64,000 nt of DNA, taken from assembly GCA_016204995.1 (NCBI GenBank), contig JACQJR010000001.1, positions 473,666 to 537,665 on the forward strand. The letters are read 5' to 3'. The notes under the pieces are model-generated. The model had not been told where the DNA came from, did not search any database, and worked only from the letters and a program-made list of their open reading frames with translations. Numbering within the stretch: the stretch's first letter is position 1; every line of letters starts with the position of its first letter. Shown here piece after piece: positions 1,021 through 22,860 of the stretch. A program made the translations under genes and the position numbers. This DNA comes from Candidatus Microgenomates bacterium (lineage in GTDB: Bacteria; Patescibacteriota; Microgenomatia; UBA8517; JACQJR01).

Positions 1021-1106
1021 AAATTAACCTAATTAATCTAATTTCTAATTGACCTAAATTGGGATATTGGGATTTATTTAGAAATTAGATATTAGTAATT
1101 AGAAAT
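1021..1106. repeat. Partial copy of the AT-rich intergenic repeat family (aatttctaatt...cccaaattggga...gaaattag words)
   Basis: Shares the words taatttctaattgacctaaattggga and gaaattagatattag with copies at 9740, 18580, 19845, 21785, 22741 and 24606. Confidence 0.5.
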
Positions 1107-1244
1107 TTAAACGTTTAATCGCGCCCTACCCTTCTTTCGCCGGCTGGCCAAAACAGCTCTGCCTGTTCTAGTCCTCATTCGTTTTCTAAAACCATGGACA
1201 CGCGCTCGTTGTTTTTTATGTGGCTGATAAGTACGCTTAGGCAT
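1107..1244 (-). CDS. rpmH: 50S ribosomal protein L34. Not in the ORF track because it is under 60 aa.
   Basis: Minus-strand translation gives [45 protein letters not shown], a textbook L34 sequence. Confidence 0.85.
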
Positions 1245-4970: not shown

Positions 4971-7241
4971 TTACCAACTGACTCCGCAATTATCAGCACA
5001 ACCCCGTTTAATTGCCAACGGAATAAATGGTGGTTCTATTGGTAAGCCTATAAATTGATAATGTAAATGCGGTCCTGTGGTGTAGGCGCCGGTGTTGCCG
5101 ACATTGCCTACCCGCTCTCCTTTATTAACATTTCTATTAATAATATCAGCATTATAAGAAGATAAATGGACGTAGCGGCTTCTGAATTCTTTACCGTTGC
5201 AAACTCCTACCACTTCCACTACATTGCCGCCGCCATAGGTGGGAGTATAAATAGCCCGGCCTTGATGGCTGGTAAAAACCGGCGTACCCACTTCATTGCC
5301 GCCAATATCTAAAGCCTCCAGGCTTTGATGTGAGTAGACTCCATCAGGACCTTGAGTAACTGTACCATGTTCTAACGGCCAGCCGGAGGGACAATCTTGT
5401 GGTGGAGAGCCGATGATGATGGTGACAGTCGTGCTATTGGTTTGAGTAGGTTGTTTTTCCACCGAAGCAGAAACAGTGACGGTGTTAATTAATAAACTAT
5501 CTTTCAACTGTTCTTTAATCTGACTAACATCAACAGTAAAAGTTTTTTGCCAACTATCAATTATTTCATCAGCCGTCCAGCTTTGAGAAGGAATAGTCGG
5601 GGCACTGCCTTGTTTACTGACGGTAAATTTATCTTCAATGGTGGCAGCAGTTAATTTGCCGCTTTTAGGAGAAACGGTAATGGTATAGGAAATACTATCA
5701 GGCAGATTGTCGTTGGTAAAAATTGTTTGGGGAGTGGTTTTAACGATGTTAATATATTTTGATTCTTCTTCTGCTCCGCCTAAAAAGGCGCTTTGGTGGG
5801 TATTAATATTAATCATAGTTAGTAAGATTAATACAGCAAAAATTCCAATAATAACTGCTAATACAATACCCCCTGAAACACCGGCAATGGTACCACCAAA
5901 CACCCCACTTACAGAAACTCCACCCAGGGAAGTTAAGCCTTTGAGAAAATTAAGGCCACCGCCTAAAAATTTACCCATTCCAGAAAAACCAGCTTGTAGG
6001 CCGCGAGCAGTAAGAGTTTGACCTGGACCAGTGATGGCGCGAGTGGCCATCTGTCCAATCTGACCTACCTGCGTAGGCAGGCCCACCGGACCAAAACCTA
6101 AAGCACTTTTCAAATCCTGGGGTGCACGAATGGTAATAATTTGTAATCGGGAGATAATGTTTGCTGATAAGTTACGCAAAGGAGAAGTAATAGTTCTAAC
6201 CAAAGGGCTTTGGCCAAGGCTGGTTAAGATGTTTTTTCTATTGCCGCCAGTGGTATTTTCCACTCCAACAAGCTTTTGATTTAGATCAAGTTTCAACTTA
6301 AAAACTTCCAGCTTAGCTTTTAATTGAGGTGTGGGTTCGCCAGAGCCACCAGCAATAGGTGGGCGGGTAGACATTGACCATTGGATATTTTCCGGATGAT
6401 TAATAGTATTAAGAATTGAAGAAAGTAAAGGATGTTGTCTTTCCCAGAGATTAAGAATACTAGCTTGTTTGAGTATGGCTTGGGCTACGTGGCGTTCACT
6501 TAAAGATGCTGTTTGACTAAAATTATTGGCGGCAGTAGTCAGTGATTGAGCAGTTACCCCCACTTGAGCTAGAGCTAAAGTAGAAGCTCCTTGAGGATTT
6601 TGTTTACCGAGAGCTTCTTGACCGAGAGAAATAGTACCTCGGATAATTTGTAAAGGTAAAGAGGAAATGGCATTGGTGACTTCTTTTAAAATAGGGGCGC
6701 TAACTTGGTTTTTGACTAGGTAAACTTCGCTGGGAACTGATTCAGTAGTGGGGGTAGAAGTTGGGGGCTGTGGGGCGGGCCGCAGGCTTTGAGCGCCTGC
6801 AGTGAGCGAAGTCGAACTGGGGTTAAGGGGTGGAGTGGCAGGAGAAGTAGTAGTAATAACCGGTCTTGTCTTAGTTAATGGTTCTGTTGTAGCCGCAGGC
6901 TGATCTGGCGGTTGGAATTTACCTTCTTTAATTAAATATTGGGCTACCACATATTGTCTAACCCATCTGCGGGCGTTCATTTTTATTTCTTCGTTGCGAC
7001 TTTGAACATCTTCCAGTTTTTGCACTAATTCTTTAAGGTTAGGGGGAATATTGGCAGTCAATTCACCACCGGCTATTTTTTCCAAAGTGATCACAACTTG
7101 TGAGAGGTCTTGCTTACCGAATAATTCAGTGACTATTTGGAAGAATTCTTCCCGGCTAAAATCCTGCCATATGAGCAAATGGGGGTCGCCGGCAAAGGCT
7201 TTAACGCCTTGCAATAAAAAATTGGCTAAATTTTGATTCAT
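4971..7241 (-). CDS. Membrane-anchored M23 (LytM-type) peptidoglycan peptidase. Cell-wall hydrolase of the T4SS-like locus (PrgK/TcpG-like role).
   Basis: 756 aa. Central TM cluster (IVLAVIIGIFAVLILL). The C-terminus has M23 motifs (HQSLEALDIG, GPHLHYQF). It is translationally coupled to virB4 by an ATGA overlap. Confidence 0.6.
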   Translation of the reverse strand: MNQNLANFLLQGVKAFAGDPHLLIWQDFSREEFFQIVTELFGKQDLSQVVITLEKIAGGELTANIPPNLKELVQKLEDVQSRNEEIKMNARRWVRQYVVAQYLIKEGKFQPPDQPAATTEPLTKTRPVITTTSPATPPLNPSSTSLTAGAQSLRPAPQPPTSTPTTESVPSEVYLVKNQVSAPILKEVTNAISSLPLQIIRGTISLGQEALGKQNPQGASTLALAQVGVTAQSLTTAANNFSQTASLSERHVAQAILKQASILNLWERQHPLLSSILNTINHPENIQWSMSTRPPIAGGSGEPTPQLKAKLEVFKLKLDLNQKLVGVENTTGGNRKNILTSLGQSPLVRTITSPLRNLSANIISRLQIITIRAPQDLKSALGFGPVGLPTQVGQIGQMATRAITGPGQTLTARGLQAGFSGMGKFLGGGLNFLKGLTSLGGVSVSGVFGGTIAGVSGGIVLAVIIGIFAVLILLTMININTHQSAFLGGAEEESKYINIVKTTPQTIFTNDNLPDSISYTITVSPKSGKLTAATIEDKFTVSKQGSAPTIPSQSWTADEIIDSWQKTFTVDVSQIKEQLKDSLLINTVTVSASVEKQPTQTNSTTVTIIIGSPPQDCPSGWPLEHGTVTQGPDGVYSHQSLEALDIGGNEVGTPVFTSHQGRAIYTPTYGGGNVVEVVGVCNGKEFRSRYVHLSSYNADIINRNVNKGERVGNVGNTGAYTTGPHLHYQFIGLPIEPPFIPLAIKRGCADNCGVSW

Positions 7242-9736
7242 GTTGACGGTTTGGGATTAGGAGTGAGGTTCCAAGTGACAGTGGCGGGTATGGTAGCAGT
7301 GGGTGGTTCTGGATTAGGGGCGGGTTGTGGATTTTGAATTGAGCCGAAGGATTGCCTAGCAGCTAGTTCTTCCGGCTTAGTAGTGATTAACGCATGTTCT
7401 TTTTCCGAAGCGACCGAGCGCATGGCGACGTGATGGGGTCCGGCAAAGAAAATACCTTCGCCAATATCAGCAGATAACAATAATTGTTTTTCTCCTTCAG
7501 AGAGATGAAAAACCTCACCCACCCGGTCAATAGCGCTAGCCGATTGTTTCATCAGAATCCGCATGGCGGCATTATTAACAATGGCTTTGCCGATTTCTTG
7601 AGCCAAGAAATCTTCTACGTCTTGGGTAATAGTGGATAGTCCCAGCCAATATTTACGGGCTCGCTTGGCAACAGACCATAGAAACATGGCTGAGTCTGGA
7701 TAGCGCATCATATGCCAAGCTTCATCCACAATTAAAATCCGCCGCTTGATATCGCGCCGGACCCTGGTCCAGATAAAGTCCAGAATAATAAACATGGCAA
7801 TTGGCCGCAAGGCATCCTCCAAGTCCCGCACGGAAAAAACCGTAAAAGGATTGGTAATATCAACCGTGGTATGCTGGTCAAAGATGCCGGTAAAACTACC
7901 CTTGACAAATTTTTCCAAACGGGCGGCTAAATTGGCCGCTTCCGGCTCTTCCATGCCGATAAAAGTTTTATATAAATCTTCCATTAAAGGGGCTTCGCGG
8001 TTGTGCGTTTGGGGGTCTTGGGTGATGCCTTTGGCCCGATAGGTAGATATCATCGCTCTGTCCAGCAAAGCCTCTTCCTGGGGCGTTAGTGCGCCCATAA
8101 TAACCTTAAAAAGGGAGTGGAGAGATAATAGTTTTAATGCCAGTTGGTTTTCCCCCGGCGCCTGGACGGTTTGTAAGTCAAAAGGATTAATTTTACTGGG
8201 GGAGCCAAAAGAAAAAGAAATTAATTGGCCGCCGACTGCTTCACATAAAGTCTGATATTCTGCTTCCGGGTCAATAATAATTATTTCTGTGCCTACCATC
8301 AAATAGCGTACAGCTTCTAATTTTACAAAGTAAGATTTGCCGCTGCCGGAAGTACCAAAAATAGTGGTATTGGGATTTTCCAGCTTAAAGCGGTCAAAAA
8401 TAATTAAAGAACCATTGTCTTCGTTAATGCCATACATTACCCCTTCTTCTTGAGATAGTTCTGCCGAGGTAAAGGGAAAGGTGGTAGACAGAGAAGAAGT
8501 GTCCATATTGCGGGTGATGGTCAACTCGTCATAACCCAAGGGCAAAGAAGAAATAAAGCCGTCTTCTTGAGACAGAGTAGCGGGTTTGGCATTAATTAAT
8601 AAAGCTCCTAAAGTGGACTGGATTTGTTTGGTAACATTTTCCAATTCTTCCCGATTGTCCGCCGGGATGGTAATGTAAAAACCAAACTGGAAAAAACGTT
8701 CGGCACCCCGCACCAGCTGCTCTTGCAGGCCAATAGCATCTTCCAGTTTAGCTTGGGTGCCGGGATTAATAATCCGGCCCCGTTGGACATCAGTAGATAT
8801 TTCTGCTTCCATCTCGGCAATTTTGCGGCGCAAATCATCCAAGACAGTTTTTCCTTCTACCGGATAGATAAAGAAAGATAAATTAAGAGTGTGGTCAAAA
8901 TTAATAATCGGATCCAGCCAGCCGGCGGTGACAAAGCGGGGATACCCCGAGACAAAGATGGTGCGATATAAACGGTTGTCCATATTAATAAAGGAAAAAT
9001 CAATTTCCATAGACAGGGGGGAGAGCAAATCTACCAAATTATTGTTATCATTTTGCAGGCCTGCCTGCGCAGACAGGCTGGAGCGCTCCAGATTTAAAGT
9101 TTGCTGTTGAGCCAGTAATTTATCCCGTATTTGCGGATTATAAAGTTCAAAGAAAACATCAGTCAGTTCGTCGGTGGTTAGTTGTCTAATTTTTAATCCC
9201 AGTCTGCCGGCCTGGCGGATTAAGTGATCGCGTTTAGGGTAAAGAGAAGTTTTGGCCTTTTTAATAATATAAGAACGGGAATAAGGTAATTTTTTCGGTT
9301 TTCTGGCCAACGTCAATAAAGCTTGCTTGACTCCTAATTCTAAAGGAGAGAAAGGAATAACAATAAAAAATCTTTTAGACAGCACCCCTTTTTTCTTGAC
9401 AGTTTGAGAAATAAAGTTTTTATACTCATCCATCATTTGTGACAGTTTGGGATTGGTTTGCTTTTGCCGGGCCTCTTCTAAAAAGTCCAGATACTGCAGA
9501 ACATCTTTTTTCTCTGAGCGAACGACAATTTGGGTGGGGAATGAAAGAGAGTTAATAAAGGAGGCGTAAGCGGCCAGAATAGCTTCCTGTTCCCGTTCAG
9601 ATAGTAAAGAAAAATTAAGGGAAGTAGAAGTAAGTACTAAAGCCGCGCCGCCATTTTTTAAAAGAACTAAATCTTCGGCAATATCGGCAATAGGTAACTG
9701 TGTTTGGGTGGAGGCAGTGATCGGTTTAGCAGCCAT
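7238..9736 (-). CDS. virB4: VirB4/TrbE/TraC-family type IV secretion ATPase
   Basis: 832 aa. Walker A GTSGSGKS, Walker B ILIVDEAWHMM, and a VirB4-like LGLSTITQDVEDF segment. Confidence 0.8.
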   Translation of the reverse strand: MAAKPITASTQTQLPIADIAEDLVLLKNGGAALVLTSTSLNFSLLSEREQEAILAAYASFINSLSFPTQIVVRSEKKDVLQYLDFLEEARQKQTNPKLSQMMDEYKNFISQTVKKKGVLSKRFFIVIPFSPLELGVKQALLTLARKPKKLPYSRSYIIKKAKTSLYPKRDHLIRQAGRLGLKIRQLTTDELTDVFFELYNPQIRDKLLAQQQTLNLERSSLSAQAGLQNDNNNLVDLLSPLSMEIDFSFINMDNRLYRTIFVSGYPRFVTAGWLDPIINFDHTLNLSFFIYPVEGKTVLDDLRRKIAEMEAEISTDVQRGRIINPGTQAKLEDAIGLQEQLVRGAERFFQFGFYITIPADNREELENVTKQIQSTLGALLINAKPATLSQEDGFISSLPLGYDELTITRNMDTSSLSTTFPFTSAELSQEEGVMYGINEDNGSLIIFDRFKLENPNTTIFGTSGSGKSYFVKLEAVRYLMVGTEIIIIDPEAEYQTLCEAVGGQLISFSFGSPSKINPFDLQTVQAPGENQLALKLLSLHSLFKVIMGALTPQEEALLDRAMISTYRAKGITQDPQTHNREAPLMEDLYKTFIGMEEPEAANLAARLEKFVKGSFTGIFDQHTTVDITNPFTVFSVRDLEDALRPIAMFIILDFIWTRVRRDIKRRILIVDEAWHMMRYPDSAMFLWSVAKRARKYWLGLSTITQDVEDFLAQEIGKAIVNNAAMRILMKQSASAIDRVGEVFHLSEGEKQLLLSADIGEGIFFAGPHHVAMRSVASEKEHALITTKPEELAARQSFGSIQNPQPAPNPEPPTATIPATVTWNLTPNPKPST

Positions 9737-9739
9737 AAC

Positions 9740-9832
9740 ATTAAATTTTTAATTTCTAATTACTAATTTCTAATCAAATCCCAAATTGGGAAATTTCTAA
9801 ATCTTGGTAATTTTTTAGGTCAATTCTTTAAT
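9740..9832. repeat. Intergenic repeat copy (module A plus a partial module B) upstream of virB4
   Basis: ttaatttctaattactaatttctaatcaaatcccaaattgggaaatttctaa...ttaggtcaatt, directly abutting the virB4 start codon. Confidence 0.6.
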
Positions 9833-10982
9833 TTGCCCTAGCTTTAATGGCCAAAGGTTGAACGATTTGATTACTAATTTCTACTTGAATCGGGTCGAAT
9901 ATCAAACCTTCTTTCTCTACCATAATTTCATATTGGCCTGGCATTAAAGGGGTGGCGGTTAAAAAGTGGCCGACTTTATTAGTGCGTAAAGCCCGGACTG
10001 GCCGGCCCTCACTGTCTTTAATTTCAATAATGGCCGCTTCAATTACTTTATCTTGGGGATCTATGACTTGGCCAACAATAATGTTGGGAGCAGCCGGAGC
10101 AGGCGGAGGCACAGAGGATATTTCCAGCCTTGGTGCATTTAGACGGGGGCGGCCAGGGCCACGGCGGGGCATCACCTCTGGTCTAAAGACTGGCGATAAT
10201 GGTGAAAAAGGCATAGGCGTAGCACTGGTAAACATGGAAGGAGGATTTTGGGGAGGAGGGGGCGCCACCTGAACCGGTGCATTATAGGGTACAGTAGTCA
10301 CTTTTTGATTGAGCCAGACAGGAATTTGGGTTGGGGGTTGTGGGTTAGGAGTTATGGGTGGAGAAGGTGGGGCGTATTGGGTTTGCAGTGATGGTTCAAT
10401 CGCGGAAGTCTGTGCTGCCTGAACTGGTTCTACCTCTTGGACAGGCTGGACCGATTGGGGTGCCGATGTTGGCCGCAGGCCCTGAGCGGAGTCGAAGGGT
10501 GATTTGACAGTAGGAAATAAAGAAAGCATTTTTTGGAAAAATGATCGTTCTTTTTCTTCCAGGCTAGAAACAGCTGGTTCTTCAGAAGTAGCAGGGGTGG
10601 CTAGATAAATTTCCGCCGCTTGCTCTCCGCCAGGCGTGGCCGCTATTTGCATGACCGAGACCGGCCCGGTTTCCGGCGCAAAGGTGTCAAAAGCGGCTCC
10701 TTTTTGCCAGGCAAATTTAGTAGGAGAATAAATGGCCCGCAAAAAGGCCACAAACCACATTGATAAGGGCCGATCTTCAATCGGCAGGAAAGCAAAGGCG
10801 ACGCCTAAACCGCTAAACAAAAAAATAATTGGCCATTTGATAAAACCGGGTAAAGGCGAAGCGTAAAAAAGCAAAGCCACTAAGGCGCCACCAGCCACTT
10901 GAAAGAACTGCTTTAAGGTCATGTCGCCGACCAAACGGAACTCATAACTGGCAATATTTTGCGGTACCGGGTGCTGCTGCAT
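9828..10982 (-). CDS. Two-TM membrane protein with a proline-rich linker and a C-terminal transthyretin/CarbopepD-regulatory-like beta domain. First gene of the virB4 operon; possible VirB3-like role.
   Basis: N-terminal hairpin of 2 TM helices (GGALVALLFYASPLPGF / IIFLFSGLGVAFAFL). Long P/Q-rich low-complexity segment. C-terminal GQYEIMVEKEGLIFDP motif. Confidence 0.45.
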   Translation of the reverse strand: MQQHPVPQNIASYEFRLVGDMTLKQFFQVAGGALVALLFYASPLPGFIKWPIIFLFSGLGVAFAFLPIEDRPLSMWFVAFLRAIYSPTKFAWQKGAAFDTFAPETGPVSVMQIAATPGGEQAAEIYLATPATSEEPAVSSLEEKERSFFQKMLSLFPTVKSPFDSAQGLRPTSAPQSVQPVQEVEPVQAAQTSAIEPSLQTQYAPPSPPITPNPQPPTQIPVWLNQKVTTVPYNAPVQVAPPPPQNPPSMFTSATPMPFSPLSPVFRPEVMPRRGPGRPRLNAPRLEISSVPPPAPAAPNIIVGQVIDPQDKVIEAAIIEIKDSEGRPVRALRTNKVGHFLTATPLMPGQYEIMVEKEGLIFDPIQVEISNQIVQPLAIKARAN

Positions 10983-11747: not shown

Positions 11748-12110
11748 ATGATCAAACAGCAAAATTCAAAACAATATGATTTAGAAGAGAGGACGCTAAA
11801 TTTTGCTAAAAGAGTGAGGTTGTTTGTCGTTAAGTTTCCTAAAACAATTAGTAATATTGAAGATGGAAAACAACTAGTAAGATCTTCAGGATCGGTAGGA
11901 GCAAATTATATAGAAGCAAATGAGTCTTTAAGTAAAAAGGATTTTGTAATGAGAATTAAGATTTGTCGCAAAGAAGCAAAAGAAAGTAGGTATTGGTTAT
12001 TGTTAATTGAACCCTTAGAAGAAAATAGAAAAGAAAAAGACGAATTATTACAAGAAGCAATGGAATTAACAAAAATTTTCGGCTCAATTGTAGAAAAATC
12101 TAGAGTTTGA
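11748..12110 (+). CDS. Four-helix-bundle protein (TIGR02436 / 23S rRNA intervening-sequence protein family)
   Basis: 120 aa. Family signature YDLEERT...SSGSVGANYIEAN...KICRKEAKESRYWL. Paralog of 19906..20298. Confidence 0.7.
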   Translation: MIKQQNSKQYDLEERTLNFAKRVRLFVVKFPKTISNIEDGKQLVRSSGSVGANYIEANESLSKKDFVMRIKICRKEAKESRYWLLLIEPLEENRKEKDELLQEAMELTKIFGSIVEKSRV

Positions 12111-15707: not shown

Positions 15708-17093
15708 CTATCCAAAGAATCTTCTTGTTACACCTTGTGTTATACCGCCCAAAGCTTGTTGGATTTGTGCTTGAGCTTGGGGTAGTTGTATAGGAATAGG
15801 TTTCGTGCCAAGTAGTTGATTAATTATATCTGGTATAGTAGGCAGAAGCATAACAGCTCCTAATCCAATCATACCCTGAATTATAGTTGCTCCTCCTCCT
15901 ACGTAAGGGGGTGTCCATAATGCTCCTCCTGCTTGTCCTACTAACTCAATTAAAACTCCGGTTAAAAAAATAATTATTCCAACTGTTGGAAAAACAAGAA
16001 CATTTGCTAAAACTCCTCTTAACCATGAATTCCATATTCCTTCTCCGCGTATAGCTCCCCACAGTATAAAAAGAGGAGCTAGTATAAGGTAAAATAATAG
16101 AAGTAGATAGGATCTAGCAAGAGCGAATAATACGCGAATAAGAAAGAATAAAACTGCGAGTATAAGCATAAGTAGAACTGGTAAAAATGGACTGGCAACC
16201 GCCCCAATCGCTTGCCCTAGAGTAAGTACGGTGCCAGCGGCTGAAGGTATTTTTGTCAATAGTAATACTACAGCTGCTAGTATGCCAGCTATTGCCGCTC
16301 CAATACCTGCCGATAGTCCCCCTAATCCTTGAGCAATATTCCAAGCCCCCCCCATTCCTTGGCTAGAGATGAATCCTATTGTTTGGGCAAAACCCGCTGA
16401 TGTATATTCCTGATATCTAGCTGAGGGATCAATTATGACAGTGAGACCTGTAGAGTGTAAACCAAATACCAGTAAGCCAAAGCCCAAGTATGTCAGATCG
16501 ATTATAAATCCCACAATAGCATAAGAGAATGTTACAAATATGAGGGCTATAACAATACGAGGTAAAGCTGATTGTATGGTGATAACTGCTTGAGGGGAAA
16601 TCTTAGTGCGTAGCATAATAGCTACACCAAAACCTACTGCTGCTATCACGAAAAGTAAGTAGGTAAAATTCCTGGTGGCACTCCAAGCCATTTGAAATGG
16701 GTTAATAGCATTAAAGCCAAATCCGGTTTGGGCGTAAGCTGGTTGAACTATATTCATTCGTCGTCCCAGATCTGCTAGGTAACTCACGCCCGAGGCTGGT
16801 GGGTGTGTAACCATGCCTGCTATAGCGTTTCCGGTAGCAGGTATAGCGCCTATTTTCAACTCATCTGGACAGGTTTCATTAGCACACCCTACTAACATAG
16901 TTGTTAATCCTCCCATTAATCCTGTTAGGCTTTGGAAATCAAAGCTTTCTTTGTTATATTGATTCTTTGATATATTTAGCTGGAAATCTCCTAAATTAAG
17001 AGTGCCAATAGTTGCATAGGCAGGTGAGGTTGTGAACAAGAGTCCAAAAATAAAGATTAAAATAATTACTTTCCAGTTTTTAAGAATATTCAT
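15708..17093 (-). CDS. Polytopic membrane protein, VirB6/TrbL-like candidate of the T4SS-like locus
   Basis: 461 aa. Signal peptide (FTTSPAYA), a periplasmic segment, then at least 6 hydrophobic helices rich in G/A/L. Confidence 0.45.
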   Translation of the reverse strand: MNILKNWKVIILIFIFGLLFTTSPAYATIGTLNLGDFQLNISKNQYNKESFDFQSLTGLMGGLTTMLVGCANETCPDELKIGAIPATGNAIAGMVTHPPASGVSYLADLGRRMNIVQPAYAQTGFGFNAINPFQMAWSATRNFTYLLFVIAAVGFGVAIMLRTKISPQAVITIQSALPRIVIALIFVTFSYAIVGFIIDLTYLGFGLLVFGLHSTGLTVIIDPSARYQEYTSAGFAQTIGFISSQGMGGAWNIAQGLGGLSAGIGAAIAGILAAVVLLLTKIPSAAGTVLTLGQAIGAVASPFLPVLLMLILAVLFFLIRVLFALARSYLLLLFYLILAPLFILWGAIRGEGIWNSWLRGVLANVLVFPTVGIIIFLTGVLIELVGQAGGALWTPPYVGGGATIIQGMIGLGAVMLLPTIPDIINQLLGTKPIPIQLPQAQAQIQQALGGITQGVTRRFFG

Positions 17094-17135: not shown

Positions 17136-18578
17136 TTATCTACTAACTTCATCATACCAGTTTTTTAAGTTGTTGACAAAGTTGGGGTTATTAGCACAGA
17201 TTGGTTGAACTTGGGGACCGCAGAAATATTTCATCCATTCGGTAAAGTCGTTAGGATGTTCTATAGAAGTGAAATTTATAAAGCAGTTTAATGATTTATC
17301 AAAGGGTACGCGTTGACTAGTATCGCCGTTAGGAAAACAGCCAAATTCACTGTATCCTCCAGTGACCGGGATAGCGCCGCCGGCTGCACTTTCTTCAATC
17401 CAAATAGCCATGGTAAAAGCCGGATTGACGCCAGCTGATCGGGACCGGCTGACAACAGTATCCCAATAATCAAAAATTTTACTGTTGGGCCAATTTTGTA
17501 AAACCCGCTGGATTAATCTTTGTTTAGTCTCATTAGAAATAATAAAATTGGCATCGCGATAGGGAAGAGTATAAGTTAAACCAGTGCCGGTATTGGTGGT
17601 AGTACCGCCATTGTCAGTAGTCCCGCCAGAACTTACTAAATATTGCAGTTCTTGGGGATAAAGAGATTGTTTAAGTAAAGTTTCCCCTTGCCTGGCTCCG
17701 GCCACGCCTCTAAAGGCAATTTTTATATCTTTAGTATCATTGCCTATAGCATAGTCTGTGTTTACTAATTCATCTACTTGTTTAGGGCATAAATTTTCTG
17801 GACAGAAGCTTCTTAGAAAACCCATTTCTTCTGATGTTTGTCTGGCAAATGCTGCTTCTCCTTGAAGGAACTTTTGAGGCTTGATAATGACTGAGGCGAC
17901 TTGGGATTGTCCAGGTAAGAAACCCTTGACGATCTCAATAATTTTTTCCAACCAACTAAATTTAACATTAGTGAAAGTTCCATGTGTTTCGGTATCAACA
18001 CTACTATTTGAAGTAATTCCGGCTAATTCGGGAGGGCAATTAGGAAGTTCCTGGTTTCCATCAGGAATGGAGGAGGGAGAATTTGGCAAAGATAATTCTA
18101 CATCGGAAGAATTGCCTGGTACACCAATGGCTTGATTTAATTTAGTGGCACCAATTAATTTAGACCAATAATCCGGCGCAGAGAATTCTTTACTACCCTT
18201 AGCTTCTGCAGATTTTTCTCCTTGAGTTTTGCAGCCGGGGTTATAAATGACTCCTTTTAAATTTGTATTTGCTTCTGGTAATTTTAGTTTTTGTAGCTGG
18301 TCATCTGGTAATAAAAAGGGTAAGGCTCGGGTAGCAGTATTAGTTAAGTCATTAAGGTCAGGAAACTTTACCTTATCCCTGGGTCCGACATTAACTTCTG
18401 TGGGAGGATGTTTAACTGTAACCGCCCCTGGTGTGCCTTCAGCTACCACACTATCTCCCAAGGGTATGTTTTCTCCGAAGGTGGGAGTGTCAGCGCTCGT
18501 ATCAATTTCTTCAGCATAAACAGGAATGGTAAGCAGTAGGCAATAAGTAATAAGCGATAAAATAAATAAGAAGCGCAT
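17136..18578 (-). CDS. Secreted protein with a C-terminal lytic-transglycosylase-like (VirB1-like) region
   Basis: 480 aa with a signal peptide. The C-terminal AGVNPAFTMAIWIEESAAGG resembles the SLT motif V.P.L..AIA..ES. Confidence 0.4.
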   Translation of the reverse strand: MRFLFILSLITYCLLLTIPVYAEEIDTSADTPTFGENIPLGDSVVAEGTPGAVTVKHPPTEVNVGPRDKVKFPDLNDLTNTATRALPFLLPDDQLQKLKLPEANTNLKGVIYNPGCKTQGEKSAEAKGSKEFSAPDYWSKLIGATKLNQAIGVPGNSSDVELSLPNSPSSIPDGNQELPNCPPELAGITSNSSVDTETHGTFTNVKFSWLEKIIEIVKGFLPGQSQVASVIIKPQKFLQGEAAFARQTSEEMGFLRSFCPENLCPKQVDELVNTDYAIGNDTKDIKIAFRGVAGARQGETLLKQSLYPQELQYLVSSGGTTDNGGTTTNTGTGLTYTLPYRDANFIISNETKQRLIQRVLQNWPNSKIFDYWDTVVSRSRSAGVNPAFTMAIWIEESAAGGAIPVTGGYSEFGCFPNGDTSQRVPFDKSLNCFINFTSIEHPNDFTEWMKYFCGPQVQPICANNPNFVNNLKNWYDEVSR

Positions 18579-18579
18579 G

Positions 18580-18693
18580 TTTTAAATTTCTAATTACTAA
18601 TTTTTAATTTCTAATCAAATTCCAAGATTGGGAAATTTCCCCAATTAGGATTTATTTAGATTAATTAGAATAATTAGGTCAATTAGGTTAATT
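18580..18693. repeat. Full intergenic repeat unit (module A + module B)
   Basis: taaatttctaattactaatttttaatttctaatcaaattccaagattgggaaatttcc...ttaattagaataattaggtcaattaggttaattct. Confidence 0.65.
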
Positions 18694-19023
18694 CTATTGT
18701 GTTACTTTAAATATCGTTACGTCTACTCCGGTAAACTCTTTGATAAATTGAAGAATAAGGAAGGCCGAGATAATAACCACAAATCCAATTAAAGCATAAG
18801 TTAAAGTTTGTTTGGCGCCTTCCACTCCTTGTTTATCGCCGCCGGCAGTTAAGAATTTAAACCCTCCACTAATTAACATGATAAAAAGAGCAATACCAGC
18901 TAGAGCTATGGCAATGGTAACTACATTGGAAAAAATTACCTCTAACCCTTTTATAGTAGCTACGCCGTTTTCAGTAGCTCCGGGTACATCTTCTAACTTT
19001 GTTTGCGCCAAATAATTAACCAT
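18694..19023 (-). CDS. T4SS pilin-like protein (VirB2/TrbC-like), paralog 1
   Basis: 109 aa. Core SGGFKFLTAGGDKQGVEGAKQTLTYALIGFVVIISAFLIL is shared by all eight paralogs. Confidence 0.65.
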   Translation of the reverse strand: MVNYLAQTKLEDVPGATENGVATIKGLEVIFSNVVTIAIALAGIALFIMLISGGFKFLTAGGDKQGVEGAKQTLTYALIGFVVIISAFLILQFIKEFTGVDVTIFKVTQ

Positions 19024-19112
19024 TAATTTAGTGTATCAATAGCTTAGGCAAGAAGCAAGTCATGACAGTGAGTTATGTTGAAATACTTATAGTAGTGAGC
19101 AACGCCGAACTA

Positions 19113-19502
19113 TTAAGGTTTAAGGCTGGGGATAGATAGATTAAGAATGTTGATGCCGAATAGGGCGTTAATTAATTGTAAGATGGCCCAAGCGGAAAAG
19201 ACAATGACCAATCCCACGAGAGCGGCGGTAATTTGACCTCTGGCGCCTTCAGTAGCTTGTTTATCCCCTCCGGACATAATCCAGCGGATACCGCCAATTA
19301 CTAAAATGAAAAAGAAAACTAAAGCGGCAATAACTAAAGTTAAGCTGACTAATCCAGAAACTACGCTAGCAGGAGTTAATTTACCAAGAGGCTCAAAATC
19401 TCCTTTAGCATTAAGATCAATTTTATCGGCAGCAAATGCGGGTAAGGCTGATAATAAAAAAGCCGCTCCGGTAGCGGTGGCGGTTTGCAGGGTTCTTTTC
19501 AT
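19113..19502 (-). CDS. T4SS pilin-like protein, paralog 2
   Basis: Signal peptide, then IGGIRWIMSGGDKQATEGARGQITAALVGLVIVFSAWAIL. Confidence 0.65.
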   Translation of the reverse strand: MKRTLQTATATGAAFLLSALPAFAADKIDLNAKGDFEPLGKLTPASVVSGLVSLTLVIAALVFFFILVIGGIRWIMSGGDKQATEGARGQITAALVGLVIVFSAWAILQLINALFGINILNLSIPSLKP

Positions 19503-19517
19503 AGTTACAATTAAATT

Positions 19518-19841
19518 TTATAAGGCCAATTTGCTAATGTCAAGAACTAAAATATTTATGTCAAAAAGTCCTTCTAGCAGGGTGGCTAAGGCAAAAACGG
19601 TAAAAACGATAAATAAACCAATTAAAGCGCTCGTCAGATGGCCGCGGGCTGATTCCACTTTTTGTTTGTCGCCGCCAGCCGTCATCCAAGAAATACCGCC
19701 TAAGAGCATCATAAAGATAAAGATAATAGCGGCTATGACTAAAGTAACTGTAATCAGCATCGGCAAAAGTTTAGCAAAAAAGTCCTCTCCTGACAGATTC
19801 TGTAAATCTTTATTTAATAAGGGATTAGTAACGCCTTTCAT
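19518..19841 (-). CDS. T4SS pilin-like protein, paralog 3
   Basis: LGGISWMTAGGDKQKVESARGHLTSALIGLFIVFTVFAL. Confidence 0.65.
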   Translation of the reverse strand: MKGVTNPLLNKDLQNLSGEDFFAKLLPMLITVTLVIAAIIFIFMMLLGGISWMTAGGDKQKVESARGHLTSALIGLFIVFTVFALATLLEGLFDINILVLDISKLAL

Positions 19842-19844
19842 AAT

Positions 19845-19905
19845 TATATTTAAATTTCTAATTACTAATTTTTAATTTCTAATCAAATCCCAATTCGGAA
19901 ATTAT
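19845..19905. repeat. Intergenic repeat copy (module A)
   Basis: taaatttctaattactaatttttaatttctaatcaaatcccaattcggaaat, abutting the paralog 3 start. Confidence 0.6.
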
Positions 19906-20298
19906 TTAGAACAATGAGAAATTAGGTTGATTTCTTTTCTGCTTTAGTTTATTAACTATTGAATTAAAAATCAAGTTTAATTCTTTAGCTTCTTGCCAAA
20001 TGATTTTTGCTTCATCTTTTAATTCTGGAACAGCTATAGGAATTATTCTTAGCCAATGCTTTACCTCTCTAGCTTCCTTTTTACATATACCAATTTTATG
20101 TTTAAAATCATCTCTGCTTTCTGCATCATCAGCTTCGCAATAATTTGCGCCTACGCTCGTTCCCGCCTTAACAAGCTGGGTTATTAATGGATCGGTGGTA
20201 GGACTTCTTGGAATTTTTCTACAAAATTTAATAATTTCCTCTCCAAATTTAGCTGTTCTTTCTTCCAGATCATATTGAAACTTTGTGTCATTGGGCAT
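19906..20298 (-). CDS. Four-helix-bundle protein (TIGR02436 family). Second paralog, inserted inside the pilin array.
   Basis: YDLEERTAKFGEEI...AGTSVGANYCEAD...ICKKEAREVKHWL. Aligns with 11748..12110. Confidence 0.7.
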   Translation of the reverse strand: MPNDTKFQYDLEERTAKFGEEIIKFCRKIPRSPTTDPLITQLVKAGTSVGANYCEADDAESRDDFKHKIGICKKEAREVKHWLRIIPIAVPELKDEAKIIWQEAKELNLIFNSIVNKLKQKRNQPNFSLF

Positions 20299-20347
20299 TC
20301 TTTAGATCAATTAGAAATTAGGTCAATTAGAGTAATTTAATTCTCCT

Positions 20348-20725
20348 CTATTGAGGAGATAAGGTTTTAACTACGTTTTCAATATCCAAAATAGTACTGA
20401 TGCCAATCAAGTTGGTAATTAGGCGGATTAAGAAAATGGCAAAGACTACTACTGCCAAACCGATAATGGCGCTGGTTAATTTACTGCGTGCTTCGCCCAA
20501 TTTATTTTTATCTCCGCCCGAGCTTAACCATTGAATGCCGCCAACTAACAGCTGAAAGATAAACCAGATGGCGGCAATAATGGTCATAAAGCCGATGACG
20601 TTGGAAATTAATTGAGCAAAAATTGCAGGGGCGTCAAAAGCGCTTTTATTATCGCCCAAACCCAGAGGTCCGATACCGCGAAAGCCTTTTCCACCAGAAA
20701 TATCAAAGGGTATTTGTAGTAACAT
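20348..20725 (-). CDS. T4SS pilin-like protein, paralog 4
   Basis: VGGIQWLSSGGDKNKLGEARSKLTSAIIGLAVVVFAIFLI. Confidence 0.65.
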   Translation of the reverse strand: MLLQIPFDISGGKGFRGIGPLGLGDNKSAFDAPAIFAQLISNVIGFMTIIAAIWFIFQLLVGGIQWLSSGGDKNKLGEARSKLTSAIIGLAVVVFAIFLIRLITNLIGISTILDIENVVKTLSPQ

Positions 20726-20732
20726 ATTTTAT

Positions 20733-21095
20733 TTATCCATCAATACTTGGTCCGCCGCTGGGTGGACGGAAAAGTTTTGGTTTAATCAAAATGGTGGGAT
20801 CGCCGAAGAGTATTTGTCCGAAAATAGCGCCTAAGACTAATGCTCCGGCAATAAATAATAAACCTAACAGAGATTGCCAAATTTTGGCCCAGGCTTTAGC
20901 CATATCGTCCGGCTTACCGCCGGCTGACAAGAACTGATAGCCGGCAATAATGATATTAAATAAAGTATAAATACCACCAGCGATAGTGAGAAAAAGAAGG
21001 ATATTGTTTAGAAAATCCACCAGTCCTCCCTCTTGCAGGCTGCCATACCTAGAAACACCAGGAGGGGGGTTTACTTCGCCGAAAATATTGATCAT
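20733..21095 (-). CDS. T4SS pilin-like protein, paralog 5 (more divergent)
   Basis: IAGYQFLSAGGKPDDMAKAWAKIWQSLLGLLFIAGALVLG. Confidence 0.55.
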   Translation of the reverse strand: MINIFGEVNPPPGVSRYGSLQEGGLVDFLNNILLFLTIAGGIYTLFNIIIAGYQFLSAGGKPDDMAKAWAKIWQSLLGLLFIAGALVLGAIFGQILFGDPTILIKPKLFRPPSGGPSIDG

Positions 21096-21097
21096 GT

Positions 21098-21457
21098 TTA
21101 AAATATTGGTTTTAGTATAGAAACTCCAGTAATAGTCTCAATTATTTGAATTATCCAATAACTGGTAAAAATAATCAAGAAGCCTATAACTGCGGCAGTA
21201 ATAGCCTGTTTGCCTTGAGCGGTTTTTTGTTGTTCTCCACCGCCTGCGCTCATAATAATTTTCAAACCTCCGAAAACAAGCAAGAAAAGCACAATAACGC
21301 CAGCAATGATATAGGCATTGGAAATAATAACAGAAATCAGTGAACCAAAACTTTTGACAGGGGAGTTAAAAGTGTCTCCAATATCCACAGCATAAGTAGC
21401 AGTTGGTATTAAAAACCCTAAGAGCCCAATTGCCCAAAAGCCTAATAGCTTCCTCAT
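21098..21457 (-). CDS. T4SS pilin-like protein, paralog 6. Start moved to the internal Met (MRKLLGFW) so it does not overlap paralog 7.
   Basis: FGGLKIIMSAGGGEQQKTAQGKQAITAAVIGFLIIFTSYWII. Confidence 0.6.
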   Translation of the reverse strand: MRKLLGFWAIGLLGFLIPTATYAVDIGDTFNSPVKSFGSLISVIISNAYIIAGVIVLFLLVFGGLKIIMSAGGGEQQKTAQGKQAITAAVIGFLIIFTSYWIIQIIETITGVSILKPIF

Positions 21458-21458
21458 A

Positions 21459-21782
21459 TTATTTGCTAAATATTTGTTGAATTTGATTAACACCAAAAAT
21501 TAAACCGATAGCTTGCACCAGCCAATAAGCAGTAAAGATAATCACAAAACCGATAAGAGCATGGGTTACTTTATCCTTGCCTTCTTTTAGTCCTGCCGGA
21601 TCTCCGCCGGAAGTCATCATTTGAAAGCCGCCAAAAATAAGAAAAAGAAGTACAGTAAGTCCCGCAAAGACGAAAAGGTACTTAAGTAATTCCGAAGTAA
21701 TACTACCCACAGAATTTAAATTTTGCTTTAAGCCTACAGCTCCTTGCAGCTGGTTCCAATCAATTTGAGCTAAATATTGCAT
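21459..21782 (-). CDS. T4SS pilin-like protein, paralog 7
   Basis: FGGFQMMTSGGDPAGLKEGKDKVTHALIGFVIIFTAYWLV. Confidence 0.65.
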   Translation of the reverse strand: MQYLAQIDWNQLQGAVGLKQNLNSVGSITSELLKYLFVFAGLTVLLFLIFGGFQMMTSGGDPAGLKEGKDKVTHALIGFVIIFTAYWLVQAIGLIFGVNQIQQIFSK

Positions 21783-21784
21783 AG

Positions 21785-21915
21785 TTTAAATTTCTAATTA
21801 CTAATTATTTTAATTAACCTAAATAAATCCCAATGACCAAATTGGGAAATTTCTAATTTTTAGTCATTATTTAGAGCAATTAGAAATTAGATTAATTAGG
21901 TCAATTTAAAATTCT
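21785..21915. repeat. Full intergenic repeat unit (A + B). A short insertion splits the cccaa..ttggg palindrome.
   Basis: taaatttctaattactaattattttaattaacctaaataaatcccaatgaccaaattgggaaatttctaa...gcaattagaaattagattaattaggtcaattt. Confidence 0.65.
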
Positions 21916-21920
21916 CTATA

Positions 21921-22703
21921 TTAGAATCCTGGTAAACCTAAAATATCAAGTCCGATTAATTTTAACAGAAATACGGCAAAAATCAGAAATAGCAAACCGG
22001 AAATAGCAGCAGTCAATTGTTCTTTACCGCCCTTTAGCTGATCTGGATTTCCACCCGAAGTGAGAATTTTGAGGCCACCTACTAAAATTAACAAAAAGGC
22101 AATTCCTCCGGCAATACCCAATATCCATCTTAGAGTCCATGTTACAAATTCGCTAGTATTAGTTACAGGGATGCATCCAAGTGCAGTGACTATACCCTCA
22201 TTCCCATCTGGGCAATTTGTAATAGCAGCCCCTTTTCCAGCCTCGCCGACTATAGGAGGGGAATTGGGATCTCTTACTATAAAAAGATTTTCCCCTACAT
22301 ATTTATCGGTAGGATCTAAAAATTCGCTGCTTTGTTCATATAACATAAGATGCCAAACTCCTTCTGTAAAGGTGAGTGAACCGCAATCGTTGTGTACATG
22401 TGTATCGCCACAAAAGTACTGTACTACTATTTTTCCTGCTGCATCAGGTTTCTGGTTATAGAATACATTTGCCTCGGCACCCTTTTTACCATCTCTGGCA
22501 ATTCTTTTTGTTATTAAGGTATATTCCTTATCGGCTTTTAATCGGCTAATAGTAATTTTGACATTCTGGGGTGTAGTAGGCGCAAAAAGGGAGGGATTAA
22601 TACTGATAACTTGAGCATTTGCTATGCTGTAATTTTTGGGAAAAACAAATAAAATAGTCCATAACCCCAGTAGTAAATAGAGGGCCAATAAAATCTTTGC
22701 CAT
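21921..22703 (-). CDS. Pilin-like protein, paralog 8, with a roughly 190 aa Cys-containing N-terminal globular domain fused to the conserved pilin core
   Basis: 260 aa. C-terminal VGGLKILTSGGNPDQLKGGKEQLTAAISGLLFLIFAVFLL matches paralogs 1-7. N-terminal domain has CGDTHVHNDCGS and NCPDGNEGIVTALGC. Confidence 0.6.
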   Translation of the reverse strand: MAKILLALYLLLGLWTILFVFPKNYSIANAQVISINPSLFAPTTPQNVKITISRLKADKEYTLITKRIARDGKKGAEANVFYNQKPDAAGKIVVQYFCGDTHVHNDCGSLTFTEGVWHLMLYEQSSEFLDPTDKYVGENLFIVRDPNSPPIVGEAGKGAAITNCPDGNEGIVTALGCIPVTNTSEFVTWTLRWILGIAGGIAFLLILVGGLKILTSGGNPDQLKGGKEQLTAAISGLLFLIFAVFLLKLIGLDILGLPGF

Positions 22704-22740
22704 TTACTAAATTGTAGCATGAAGGAAAACAAGGGGCAAA

Positions 22741-22860
22741 TCAATTTAATTTCTAATTCCTAATTACTAATTTCTAATCAAATCCAAATTTTGGGAAATT
22801 TCTAATTTTAGTCATTTTTTAGGTCAATTAAAAATTAGAATAATTAGGTTAATTCTAACT
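22741..22860. repeat. Full intergenic repeat unit (A + B) in the divergent region between pilin paralog 8 and the SpoIID-domain gene
   Basis: taatttctaattcctaattactaatttctaatcaaatccaaattttgggaaatttctaa...ttaggtcaattaaaaattagaataattaggttaattct. Confidence 0.65.

Follow-up and report, generated by a model that had tools for sequence, protein, structure and literature searches.

A VirB2-like pilin with a variable N-terminal module at the first position of an eight-pilin T4SS array in Microgenomatia: a candidate host-recognizing component

Genomic context of the pilin array

The window under study (the whole stretch of DNA that was analyzed, 64 kb in length) encodes dnaA, dnaN and an M23 peptidase, and carries near dnaA/dnaN a T4SS locus that includes an array of eight pilin paralogs, named here pil1 to pil8. 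The genes and upstream elements of this locus are as follows.

22727-22857, minus strand: repeated AT-rich intergenic element ahead of pil1
22711-22739, minus strand: promoter-like site TTGCCC-17-TACAAT with extended TG, 7 nt ahead of the ATG of pil1 (consensus scan alone)
21921-22703, minus strand: pil1, VirB2-like T4SS pilin of 260 aa, extended at its N-terminus; uninterrupted ORF
21459-21782, minus strand: pil2, 107 aa; PF18895 with E 1.4e-9, position conserved in orthologous arrays
21098-21457, minus strand: pil3, 119 aa from ATG (132 aa from TTG); PF18895
20733-21095, minus strand: pil4, 120 aa; PF18895 with 25.8 bits, slightly under the cut-off, position conserved
20348-20725, minus strand: pil5, 125 aa; PF18895
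19518-19841, minus strand: pil6, 107 aa; PF18895
19113-19502, minus strand: pil7, 129 aa; PF18895
18694-19023, minus strand: pil8, 109 aa; PF18895 with E 2.2e-10
17136-18578, minus strand: 480-aa secreted protein (p480), encoded between array and 461-aa protein; signal-like segment at its N-terminus
15708-17093, minus strand: hydrophobic membrane protein of 461 aa, apparently polytopic, conserved in related loci at this place downstream of the array
9828-10982, minus strand: PrgI/VirB3-like protein of 384 aa with a CarboxypepD_reg-like domain (Pfam)
7238-9736, minus strand: VirB4-like T4SS ATPase of 832 aa; NCBIfam NF045971 (conju_CD1110), 411.7 bits (cut-off 325)

The array is broken up by a 23S_rRNA_IVP-family gene (19906-20298), and the gene call for pil3 on Logan contigs is the 119-aa form. 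Besides its NCBIfam assignment, the VirB4-like ATPase matches Pfam P-loop_TraG and AAA_10; the 384-aa protein displayed matches to PrgI (E 4.8e-5, under the cut-off) and to CarboxypepD_reg (E 6.7e-6). The 461-aa protein matched nothing in Pfam or NCBIfam, and the 480-aa protein likewise matched no family; the 461-aa membrane protein is a candidate VirB6 analogue. No match to a VirB5 or PrgB family was detected among the scanned ORFs of the locus. The overall layout matches that of the Patescibacteria T4SS in Quinonero-Coronel et al. 2025 (PMC12102498).

The TTGCCC-17-TACAAT site is promoter-like, and by itself is no evidence of function. More generally, pil1 is surrounded by promoter-like and hairpin signals of its own, and copies of the AT-rich element were also seen upstream of pil2, pil6, p480 and the VirB4-like gene.

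pil1 is catalogued as 'hypothetical protein HY404_02550, Candidatus Microgenomates bacterium'. Because the array lies on the minus strand, pil1 is its first (5') gene in transcription order; an initial annotation of this DNA had taken it for the last one, which is the case only in plus-strand coordinates. That annotation had also allowed for a sequencing frameshift fusing two separate genes. However, contigs assembled independently from runs SRR12113384 and SRR12113420 both code for an identical protein, with the same short pilins downstream of it, and the layout of signal peptide, insert, Cys-loop and core recurs in more than 100 proteins and in 51 genomes. Since the frame is continuous, the independent contigs agree and orthologues with the same architecture are present in those 51 genomes, we discarded the reading of pil1 as two genes joined by a frameshift or by an error of assembly or annotation, the probability of which we regard as negligible; pil1 is a single gene.

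Family assignment of pil1

Residues 192-250 of pil1 match Pfam PF18895 (T4SS_pilin) with E 1.4e-7 and 31.9 bits (cut-off 26.6), and this was the only family retrieved when pil1 was scanned against Pfam at E up to 1. The pil1 core displays 26-31% identity to the other seven paralogs, and all eight share a core with the pattern GG...(T/S)(S/A)GG(D/N)...A...G between two hydrophobic helices, in agreement with the earlier statement that the C-terminal core of pil1 is like that of the other seven. The protein had been called a pilin without further qualification; that name stands, with the specification that it is a VirB2-like T4SS pilin (PF18895, a family of monoderm/Patescibacteria T4SS) and not one of the type IV pilus kind. 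Two hydrophobic helices with a short polar/basic loop between them are present in pil1, the hydropathy segments recur in its orthologues, and the VirB4-like ATPase gene of the locus is encoded on the same strand, 12 kb off, with the genes of the PrgI-like protein and the M23 peptidase beside it.

Other identities were considered and rejected. The N-terminus of pil1 (MAKILLALYLLLGLWTILFVFPKNYSIANAQ) lacks the class III motif (G, F/M-x-x-x-E) of type IV pilus and T2SS pilins, and no T4P family of Pfam was matched. A sortase substrate is equally inconsistent with the sequence, which lacks an LPXTG signal with a hydrophobic stretch and basic tail behind it and has ...ILGLPGF as its very end, after TM2. 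A VirB5- or PrgB-type adhesin was discarded given that neither family appeared in the Pfam scan of pil1 at E up to 1.

With the VirB2/TraA/TrbC conjugative pilins of Gram-negative T4SS (PF04956) pil1 shares the two-helix hairpin, the short basic loop, the signal peptide and a VirB4 gene alongside; unlike pil1, those pilins have mature forms of 70-120 aa and no globular domain, and some of them are cyclized. A match to PF04956 was absent for pil1, while pil2 matched that family weakly (E 0.0027).

Within PF18895 we defined a pil1-type subfamily by the motif Cys-x(8-20)-[TS]A[ILF]GC directly ahead of TM1 and, as a second criterion, by array position 1 beside a divergent SpoIID gene. pil1 carries the motif as C164...TALGC177, and the corresponding synteny was found in about 40 of the 51 loci described below.

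Domain organization of pil1

The 260 residues of pil1 can be divided as follows.

22614-22703, minus strand: putative Sec signal peptide, aa 1-30 (composed of MAK, a hydrophobic stretch and PKNYSIANA; Q31 comes next)
22266-22613, minus strand: variable beta-rich domain, aa 31-146, about 115 aa, with C98 and C107
22215-22265, minus strand: Pro/Gly-rich linker, aa 147-163 (DPNSPPIVGEAGKGAAITN), pLDDT <50
22158-22214, minus strand: conserved hairpin of the Cys-loop, aa 164-182 (C-PDGNEGIVTALGC-IPVTN), restricted to the pil1 type
21954-22157, minus strand: two-helix hairpin of the pilin, aa 183-250 (TM1, loop TSGGNPDQLKGGKEQ, TM2), from PF18895 and AF2
21921-21953, minus strand: conserved C-terminal tail ...GLDILGLPGF and stop codon

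The hydrophobic N-terminus, for which AF2 gave a helix at residues 2-20, had been described as a signal anchor; by the -3/-1 rule it resembles instead a cleavable Sec signal peptide whose probable processing site follows ANA (Ala30). An A-x-A followed by Q or G past the hydrophobic core was seen in members of the pil1 family too. At the other end of the protein, AF2 placed helices at residues 183-215 and 220-249 with pLDDT ~90, joined by the loop SGGNPDQLKGGKEQ, and the C-terminal end ILxLPGF(G) is kept throughout the pil1 subfamily.

pil1 has four cysteines, C98/C107 (FCGDTHVHNDCGS) and C164/C177 (NCPDG...ALGC). The second pair sits in the Cys-loop, modeled by AF2 as a beta hairpin (169-173 / 176-179) with pLDDT of about 87-90; taken together, this loop and the helices reach about 87-93 in the run with the family alignment. 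Because orthologues devoid of any extension, such as P0016 and P0082, retain this loop at the same spacing to TM1, the C164/C177 pair belongs to the conserved pilin module and not to the added domain. The linker ahead of it corresponds, in the relative P0005, to a Gly-rich run of ~35 aa.

This division modifies in part what had been noted initially. An extra domain fused to the pilin core is supported, being exported and presumably folded. The N-terminal domain of about 190 aa, on the other hand, is a real exported region but a composite one, whose beta-rich part spans only about 115 aa; likewise, of the paired cysteines assigned to the fused domain, C98/C107 belong there whereas C164/C177 go with the pilin module.

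Conservation of the eight pilin positions

A scan of GTDB species representatives yielded 51 loci, from Woese-, Gottesman-, Blackburn- and Shapirobacteria and from unnamed Patescibacteria. Local phmmer searches of these 51 loci with the proteins of the window revealed a conserved neighborhood, with p608, p231 and SpoIID on one strand and, on the other, pil1, pil2 to pil8, the large secreted protein and the polytopic VirB6-like membrane protein. Best matches to pil1-pil8 were strictly colinear in 12 of the 18 loci having at least six pilins, which means that the eight paralogs are old and positionally orthologous, and that the array did not arise by a recent or shuffling expansion. The question of whether related arrays also contain a fused paralog, raised in the initial annotation, can be answered in the affirmative: an extended paralog is found at the same ordinal position, though with different domains.

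The eight positions are not conserved to the same degree. Between pil1 orthologues the alignable part is restricted to the C-terminal module, whose median identity (52.6% over 97 aa) is the highest of the eight; the median was 40.7-50.5% for the other pilin positions and 38.9% for SpoIID. Of the 53 pil1 orthologues, 51 carry the motif TA[ILF]GC along with the upstream Cys, whereas the orthologues of pil2-pil8 are nearly free of cysteines.

Variability of the N-terminal module

In the pil1 orthologues signal peptide and TM1 are 19-366 aa apart, and in 34 of 50 the distance is at least 74 aa, as compared to a baseline of ~35 aa. Across genomes the N-terminal insert varies from 0 to ~330 aa, is usually non-homologous and often Cys-rich; the module may be absent, beta-rich or of a Cys-rich, knottin-like kind. 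About one third of the orthologues carry no extension, which argues that it is dispensable for the function of the core.

To describe the subfamily we built a profile from four full-length relatives, which retrieved at least 1,559 proteins, and analyzed the best 120 of them (E <1e-43). These 120 proteins, all of which match PF18895, are 123-416 aa long and nearly all (117) contain the motif GC[IVLF]P. Their N-terminal inserts measure 22-312 aa, with a median of ~137, and Pfam families are almost absent from them, except for sporadic matches to knottin/ICK, Squash and CarboxypepD_reg. Those inserts that reach 40 aa or more, 106 in number, fell into 33 BLAST clusters; even among pairs of proteins with core identity of at least 90%, insert similarity of any kind was detected in just 25%. 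The number of cysteines is even in 100 of the 109 N-extensions that contain cysteine, a regularity that points to disulfide-bonded extracytoplasmic domains.

Structure and homologues of the beta-rich domain

AF2 models of pil1 reached a mean pLDDT of 58 when run with no alignment and of 72 with the 120-sequence family alignment. Both runs placed five strands in the N-terminal domain (~48-52, 61-67, 81-84, 92-96 and 117-123), with pLDDT of 45-80; the domain is thus predicted to be beta-structured and not disordered, while the details of the model are unreliable. Structure prediction had been proposed as a check on this region, and its outcome is favorable as to the presence of beta strands, at low to moderate confidence. 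A search for lectin or adhesin folds, proposed along with it, gave no significant result: Foldseek of the domain against the PDB returned nothing below E 0.1, and a profile search of solved structures found no relative.

The weak top matches of Foldseek were Ig-like sandwiches (a Clostridium adhesin repeat, macromomycin/neocarzinostatin, FN3 and pilus chaperones), which we take as a hint of fold class only. Homology to FN3/Ig-repeat proteins was examined and rejected: whole-protein values of E 1e-14 to 1e-21 are the sum over 7-10 near-identical tandem repeats, and single FN3/Ig repeats scored 3-13 bits against the N-domain, with i-E-values >1e3 at library scale.

An exhaustive HMMER search of 1.84 billion cluster representatives identified one true homologue of the N-domain, the 354-aa protein P0005. 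It consists of two tandem beta domains, a long Gly linker and a Cys-loop and core like those of pil1; both C98 and C107 are kept in its first beta domain. The P0005 gene occupies the same position as pil1, with SpoIID divergent and pil2 downstream, and its locus is the closest relative that we found for the window, with identities of 64% for SpoIID, 68% for the pil1 core and 33% for the N-domain; between these two loci the number of beta domains goes from one in pil1 to two in P0005.

Other searches returned nothing further. A word-index search with the N-domain alone recovered pil1 itself, a two-sequence profile of the N-domain had no match, local HMM searches of all fetched loci found no copy of the domain besides P0005, and no paralog of it occurs in the rest of the 64-kb window. 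A metagenome scan brought 80 further pil1-type loci, none of them with the N-domain of the window and none close at strain level; hhalign comparisons of the N-domain to other groups of beta-type N-extensions were not significant (E 0.0014-0.54, probability <20%). The beta domain of the window is therefore nearly unique, while the architecture in which it is found is common in Microgenomatia.

Comparison with known systems

Tandem VirB2-like genes have been described in the group to which the window belongs. Quinonero-Coronel et al. 2025 counted 441 arrays of VirB2-like genes, each with 2-11 members and particularly frequent in Microgenomatia and Saccharimonadia (PMC12102498), and Wang et al. 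2023 found that an equivalent pilin series is essential for the epibiotic growth of Southlakia epibionticum, the one such system put to the test (PMC10633639). These arrays resemble that of the window in having PF18895, tandem pilins of ~25% identity, dnaA/dnaN and VirB4-like and PrgI-like proteins. As far as those sources describe them, they are sets of small variable pilins for which host-strain versatility has been suggested, a picture that differs from the one drawn here for pil1. A preprint states that PF18895 is dominant in freshwater-specific structural clusters. In the literature on these arrays, to the extent of the text available, we found neither a first paralog that combines a Cys-loop with a hypervariable module at the N-terminus nor a one-to-one orthology of eight pilin positions; hence, with respect to those sources, pilin arrays and the Patescibacteria T4SS are already known, and the head-bearing first paralog and the eight-position orthology are apparently new.

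The VirB2 expansions of Bartonella and Anaplasma, as cited in PMC12102498, are likewise divergent tandem VirB2 genes of T4SS engaged in host interaction. Their copies are regarded as interchangeable and as serving antigenic variation; the pil paralogs, in contrast, are ancient and positionally orthologous across families of Microgenomatia, with variation concentrated in the N-terminal add-on of one paralog.

Domains added to pilins are found in other machines. Minor or tip pilins with extra domains include those of type IV pili and T2SS that have inserted domains, such as GspK, and the tip adhesins of sortase pili, such as SpaC and RrgA. As in pil1, an assembly module is combined in them with a folded domain and encoded along with the major subunits, and they are low-copy proteins that confer specificity; they belong, however, to unrelated families and machines, and pil1 has neither the G/FxxxE signal nor LPXTG. 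The putatively disulfide-stapled loop of pil1 loosely resembles the disulfide-bonded D-region of type IV pilins.

In canonical T4SS adhesion is attributed to VirB5, a separate minor protein at the pilus tip, and the adhesins of Gram-positive T4SS are of the PrgB type. The proposed role of pil1, that of a minor exposed component touching the target cell, would be similar to theirs; on the other hand, no kinship in sequence or fold was detected, and the head of pil1 is fused to a pilin core.

Proposed role of pil1

We propose that the Microgenomatia T4SS possesses eight ancient and non-redundant VirB2-like pilins, among which pil1 is the specialized first one. Following the probable removal of its Sec signal peptide after Ala30, pil1 would adopt the VirB2/TraA topology, a membrane hairpin whose short Lys-rich loop faces the cytoplasm and whose termini both lie on the outer side; in the F-pilus structure the loop reportedly lines the lumen and the termini are on the outside. 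The mature N-terminus would therefore point outward, and from it would extend the hairpin stapled by C164-C177, the flexible Pro/Gly linker and the lineage-specific module, which in the window would be a beta-rich domain of ~115 aa that probably folds as an Ig-like sandwich and bears the pair C98-C107. As the module is attached to the mature N-terminus by a flexible linker and the termini would lie outside by analogy with VirB2/TraA, it would be exposed.

Such a module may act as a surface-displayed specificity determinant, that is, as an adhesin or recognition head for a bacterial host or some other external target; we favor this role because none of the other seven pilins has as conserved a core as pil1, while the module differs between genomes. 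The initial annotation had already seen in pil1 a candidate for the host-binding end of the filament, a sensible proposal in which both tip and filament are presumed. pil1 would be present in low copy, at the distal or exposed end of the eight-pilin structure. A specialized subunit of this sort is favored because a head of at least 13 kDa per subunit would be difficult to accommodate in a tightly packed filament, and also because pil1 has a unique Cys-loop and separate promoter-like and hairpin signals. There it would fill the VirB5/PrgB gap: neither VirB5 nor PrgB-type adhesins were found in Patescibacteria, the latter in the T4SS loci surveyed in PMC12102498, and the role of adhesin thus seems to be vacant in these systems.

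The best overall explanation in our judgment, which we hold tentatively and rate at somewhat under an even chance, is that the pil1 module is a surface recognition head on a VirB2-like scaffold; this makes pil1 a reasonable but unproven candidate for the host-recognizing part. The main competing reading, rather unlikely in our opinion, holds that the eight pilins assemble into a fixed hetero-oligomeric conduit or stalk that crosses the envelope, where the pil1 extension would be a spacer, a cap or a piece in contact with the cell wall or S-layer, loosely constrained in sequence. The one-to-one orthology and kept order of the paralogs speak for non-redundant structural parts, the extension is missing in about one third of the orthologues, and no adhesin fold was matched by the N-domain; moreover, pilus formation is still speculative for the Patescibacteria T4SS, none of which has been shown to make one (PMC12857230). 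A spacer, however, would not be expected to keep its cysteines even in number and its modules in a knottin-like or beta-sandwich fold, nor to be wholly swapped between genomes with cores at least 90% identical. As regards the assembly as a whole, eight conserved non-redundant paralogs could equally make up a fixed hetero-oligomeric envelope structure instead of a tipped filament.

Two further readings concern the fate of the module. It might be a delivered or tethered effector, a payload such as an inhibitor or a toxin-like knottin that the T4SS pilin scaffold would present to the host surface or release there, as could be suggested by family members with ICK/knottin toxin-like or Squash-like modules (Toxin_35 with E 6.5e-10; Squash and Toxin_12 weak) and by the flexible linker ahead of the conserved hairpin, a possible processing site. 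We consider this quite improbable, as the module of the window is not knottin-like and has no family match, folds of the knottin kind also frequently serve simply as stable binding modules outside the cell, and neither a protease site nor a releasing enzyme was identified. TraA, TrbC and VirB2 have unusually long leaders and undergo additional processing, so that the extension could also be a pro-domain removed in maturation, with its variability reflecting weak constraint; its poor conservation and its dispensability in some orthologues would fit. Yet a normal Sec-type signal peptide with A-x-A already precedes the domain, and extensions of up to at least 300 aa with even cysteine counts and recognizable folded modules are hardly those of a leader, making a pro-domain very unlikely.

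Implications for Patescibacteria T4SS

If the recognition-head explanation is extended to the family, pil1 could represent a modular host-range cassette in which a conserved scaffold carries interchangeable heads (Ig-like, knottin-like or none) that would determine the host cell or surface molecule engaged by the episymbiont, and the other seven pilins constitute a fixed shaft or conduit, an idea that is possible but doubtful at present. To our knowledge, what has been learned about host recognition by ultra-small Patescibacteria is largely confined to a few cultured Saccharibacteria. Were the cassette idea true, this would be the first T4SS whose adhesin forms part of a pilin, and it would provide a host-specificity marker that can be read from sequence for a large uncultivated lineage.

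The hypervariable exported head on a conserved pilin is a concrete candidate for the adhesin that is missing from the Patescibacteria T4SS. Since the paralogs are ancient and positionally orthologous, the published 'variable pilin arrays' may have to be reread as a fixed multi-subunit assembly, and not as a pool of interchangeable variants.

Repeated intergenic element of the T4SS genes

An AT-rich intergenic element of ~110 nt is conserved in the window immediately 5' of pil1, pil2 and pil6, three of the eight VirB2-like pilin genes pil1-pil8 (numbered in transcription order), and of the gene for a 480-aa secreted protein. The element ends at its 3' side in AATTAGTAATTAGAAATTTAAA and contains the inverted repeat GAAATTTCCCAA/TTGGGATTT; its 22-mer occurs 8 times in the 64 kb window against 0 expected.

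AT-rich element copies and associated sites
22727-22857, minus strand, copy upstream of pil1
22711-22739, minus strand, promoter-like site TTGCCC-17-(TG)TACAAT from a consensus scan, ending 7 nt ahead of the pil1 ATG
21785-21909, minus strand, copy upstream of pil2
21828-21847, terminator-like hairpin between pil1 and pil2, belonging to the repeated element
20297-20340, minus strand, partial (half) copy upstream of the 23S_rRNA_IVP-family gene
19849-19903, minus strand, copy upstream of pil6
18581-18690, minus strand, copy upstream of the 480-aa gene
9740-9768, minus strand, two overlapping copies just upstream of the VirB4-like gene
1090-1111, plus strand, one copy upstream of dnaA

The element may be a promoter, operator or 5'UTR common to the T4SS genes. 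The pil1 ATG has no visible Shine-Dalgarno sequence in front of it, and the pil1 transcript may be near-leaderless.

The window holds two genes of the 23S_rRNA_IVP family (four-helix bundle), and a comparable gene also lies within the pilin array of another locus, L014.

23S_rRNA_IVP-family genes
19906-20298, minus strand, inserted between pil5 and pil6
11748-12110, plus strand, second gene of the family

N-termini of the pilins and the 480-aa secreted protein

Sequences judged by eye showed an N-terminal Sec-type signal peptide in pil1, pil3 and pil7 only; pil2, pil4, pil5, pil6 and pil8 carry instead a hydrophilic tail of 25-45 aa preceding TM1, and would thus need another insertion route or a different processing step. 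Short pilins at 21459-21782, 19113-19502 and 18694-19023 weakly matched, below the cut-off (E 5e-7 to 2e-4), NCBIfam NF045849, the 'Mbov_0395 family pilin-like conjugal transfer protein' of Mycoplasma ICEs, a weak likeness that is consistent with a monoderm-conjugation ancestry of the short pilins.

The 480-aa secreted protein encoded downstream of the array (17136-18578, minus strand) had no family match in Pfam or NCBIfam. Its C-terminal part contains AFTMAIWIEESAAGG, which resembles the E-S motif at the catalytic site of lytic transglycosylases; going by this resemblance, the protein may be a VirB1 analogue.

Array variants and positional orthology

In several Gottesmanbacteria-type loci pil1-pil2 are split from pil3-pil8 by ~6 kb with six or seven opposite-strand genes, and some genomes carry two or three pil1-type (GCIP) genes in succession, with long and mutually different N-terminal inserts.

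Variant arrays in related loci
L009 8730-15440, split array
L017 7090-14070, split array
L039, split array
L050, split array
L010 6326-10261, consecutive pil1-type genes with N-terminal inserts (370, 390 and 507 aa)
L044 254-2170, consecutive pil1-type genes with N-terminal inserts (475 and 130 aa)

The 'head-bearing' position is itself duplicated in L010 and L044. L054, the sole genome with a homologous N-domain, has a HicAB toxin-antitoxin pair between SpoIID and pil1 (1910-2400).

When the array of the window (18694-22703) was compared with 51 species-representative loci (L003-L053), the pil1 to pil8 order was strictly colinear in 12 of the 18 loci that have six or more pilins. Judged from gene order, the eight pilins have positional orthologues across Microgenomatia, which argues for eight non-redundant subunits and against the interchangeable 'versatility' variants proposed in the literature.
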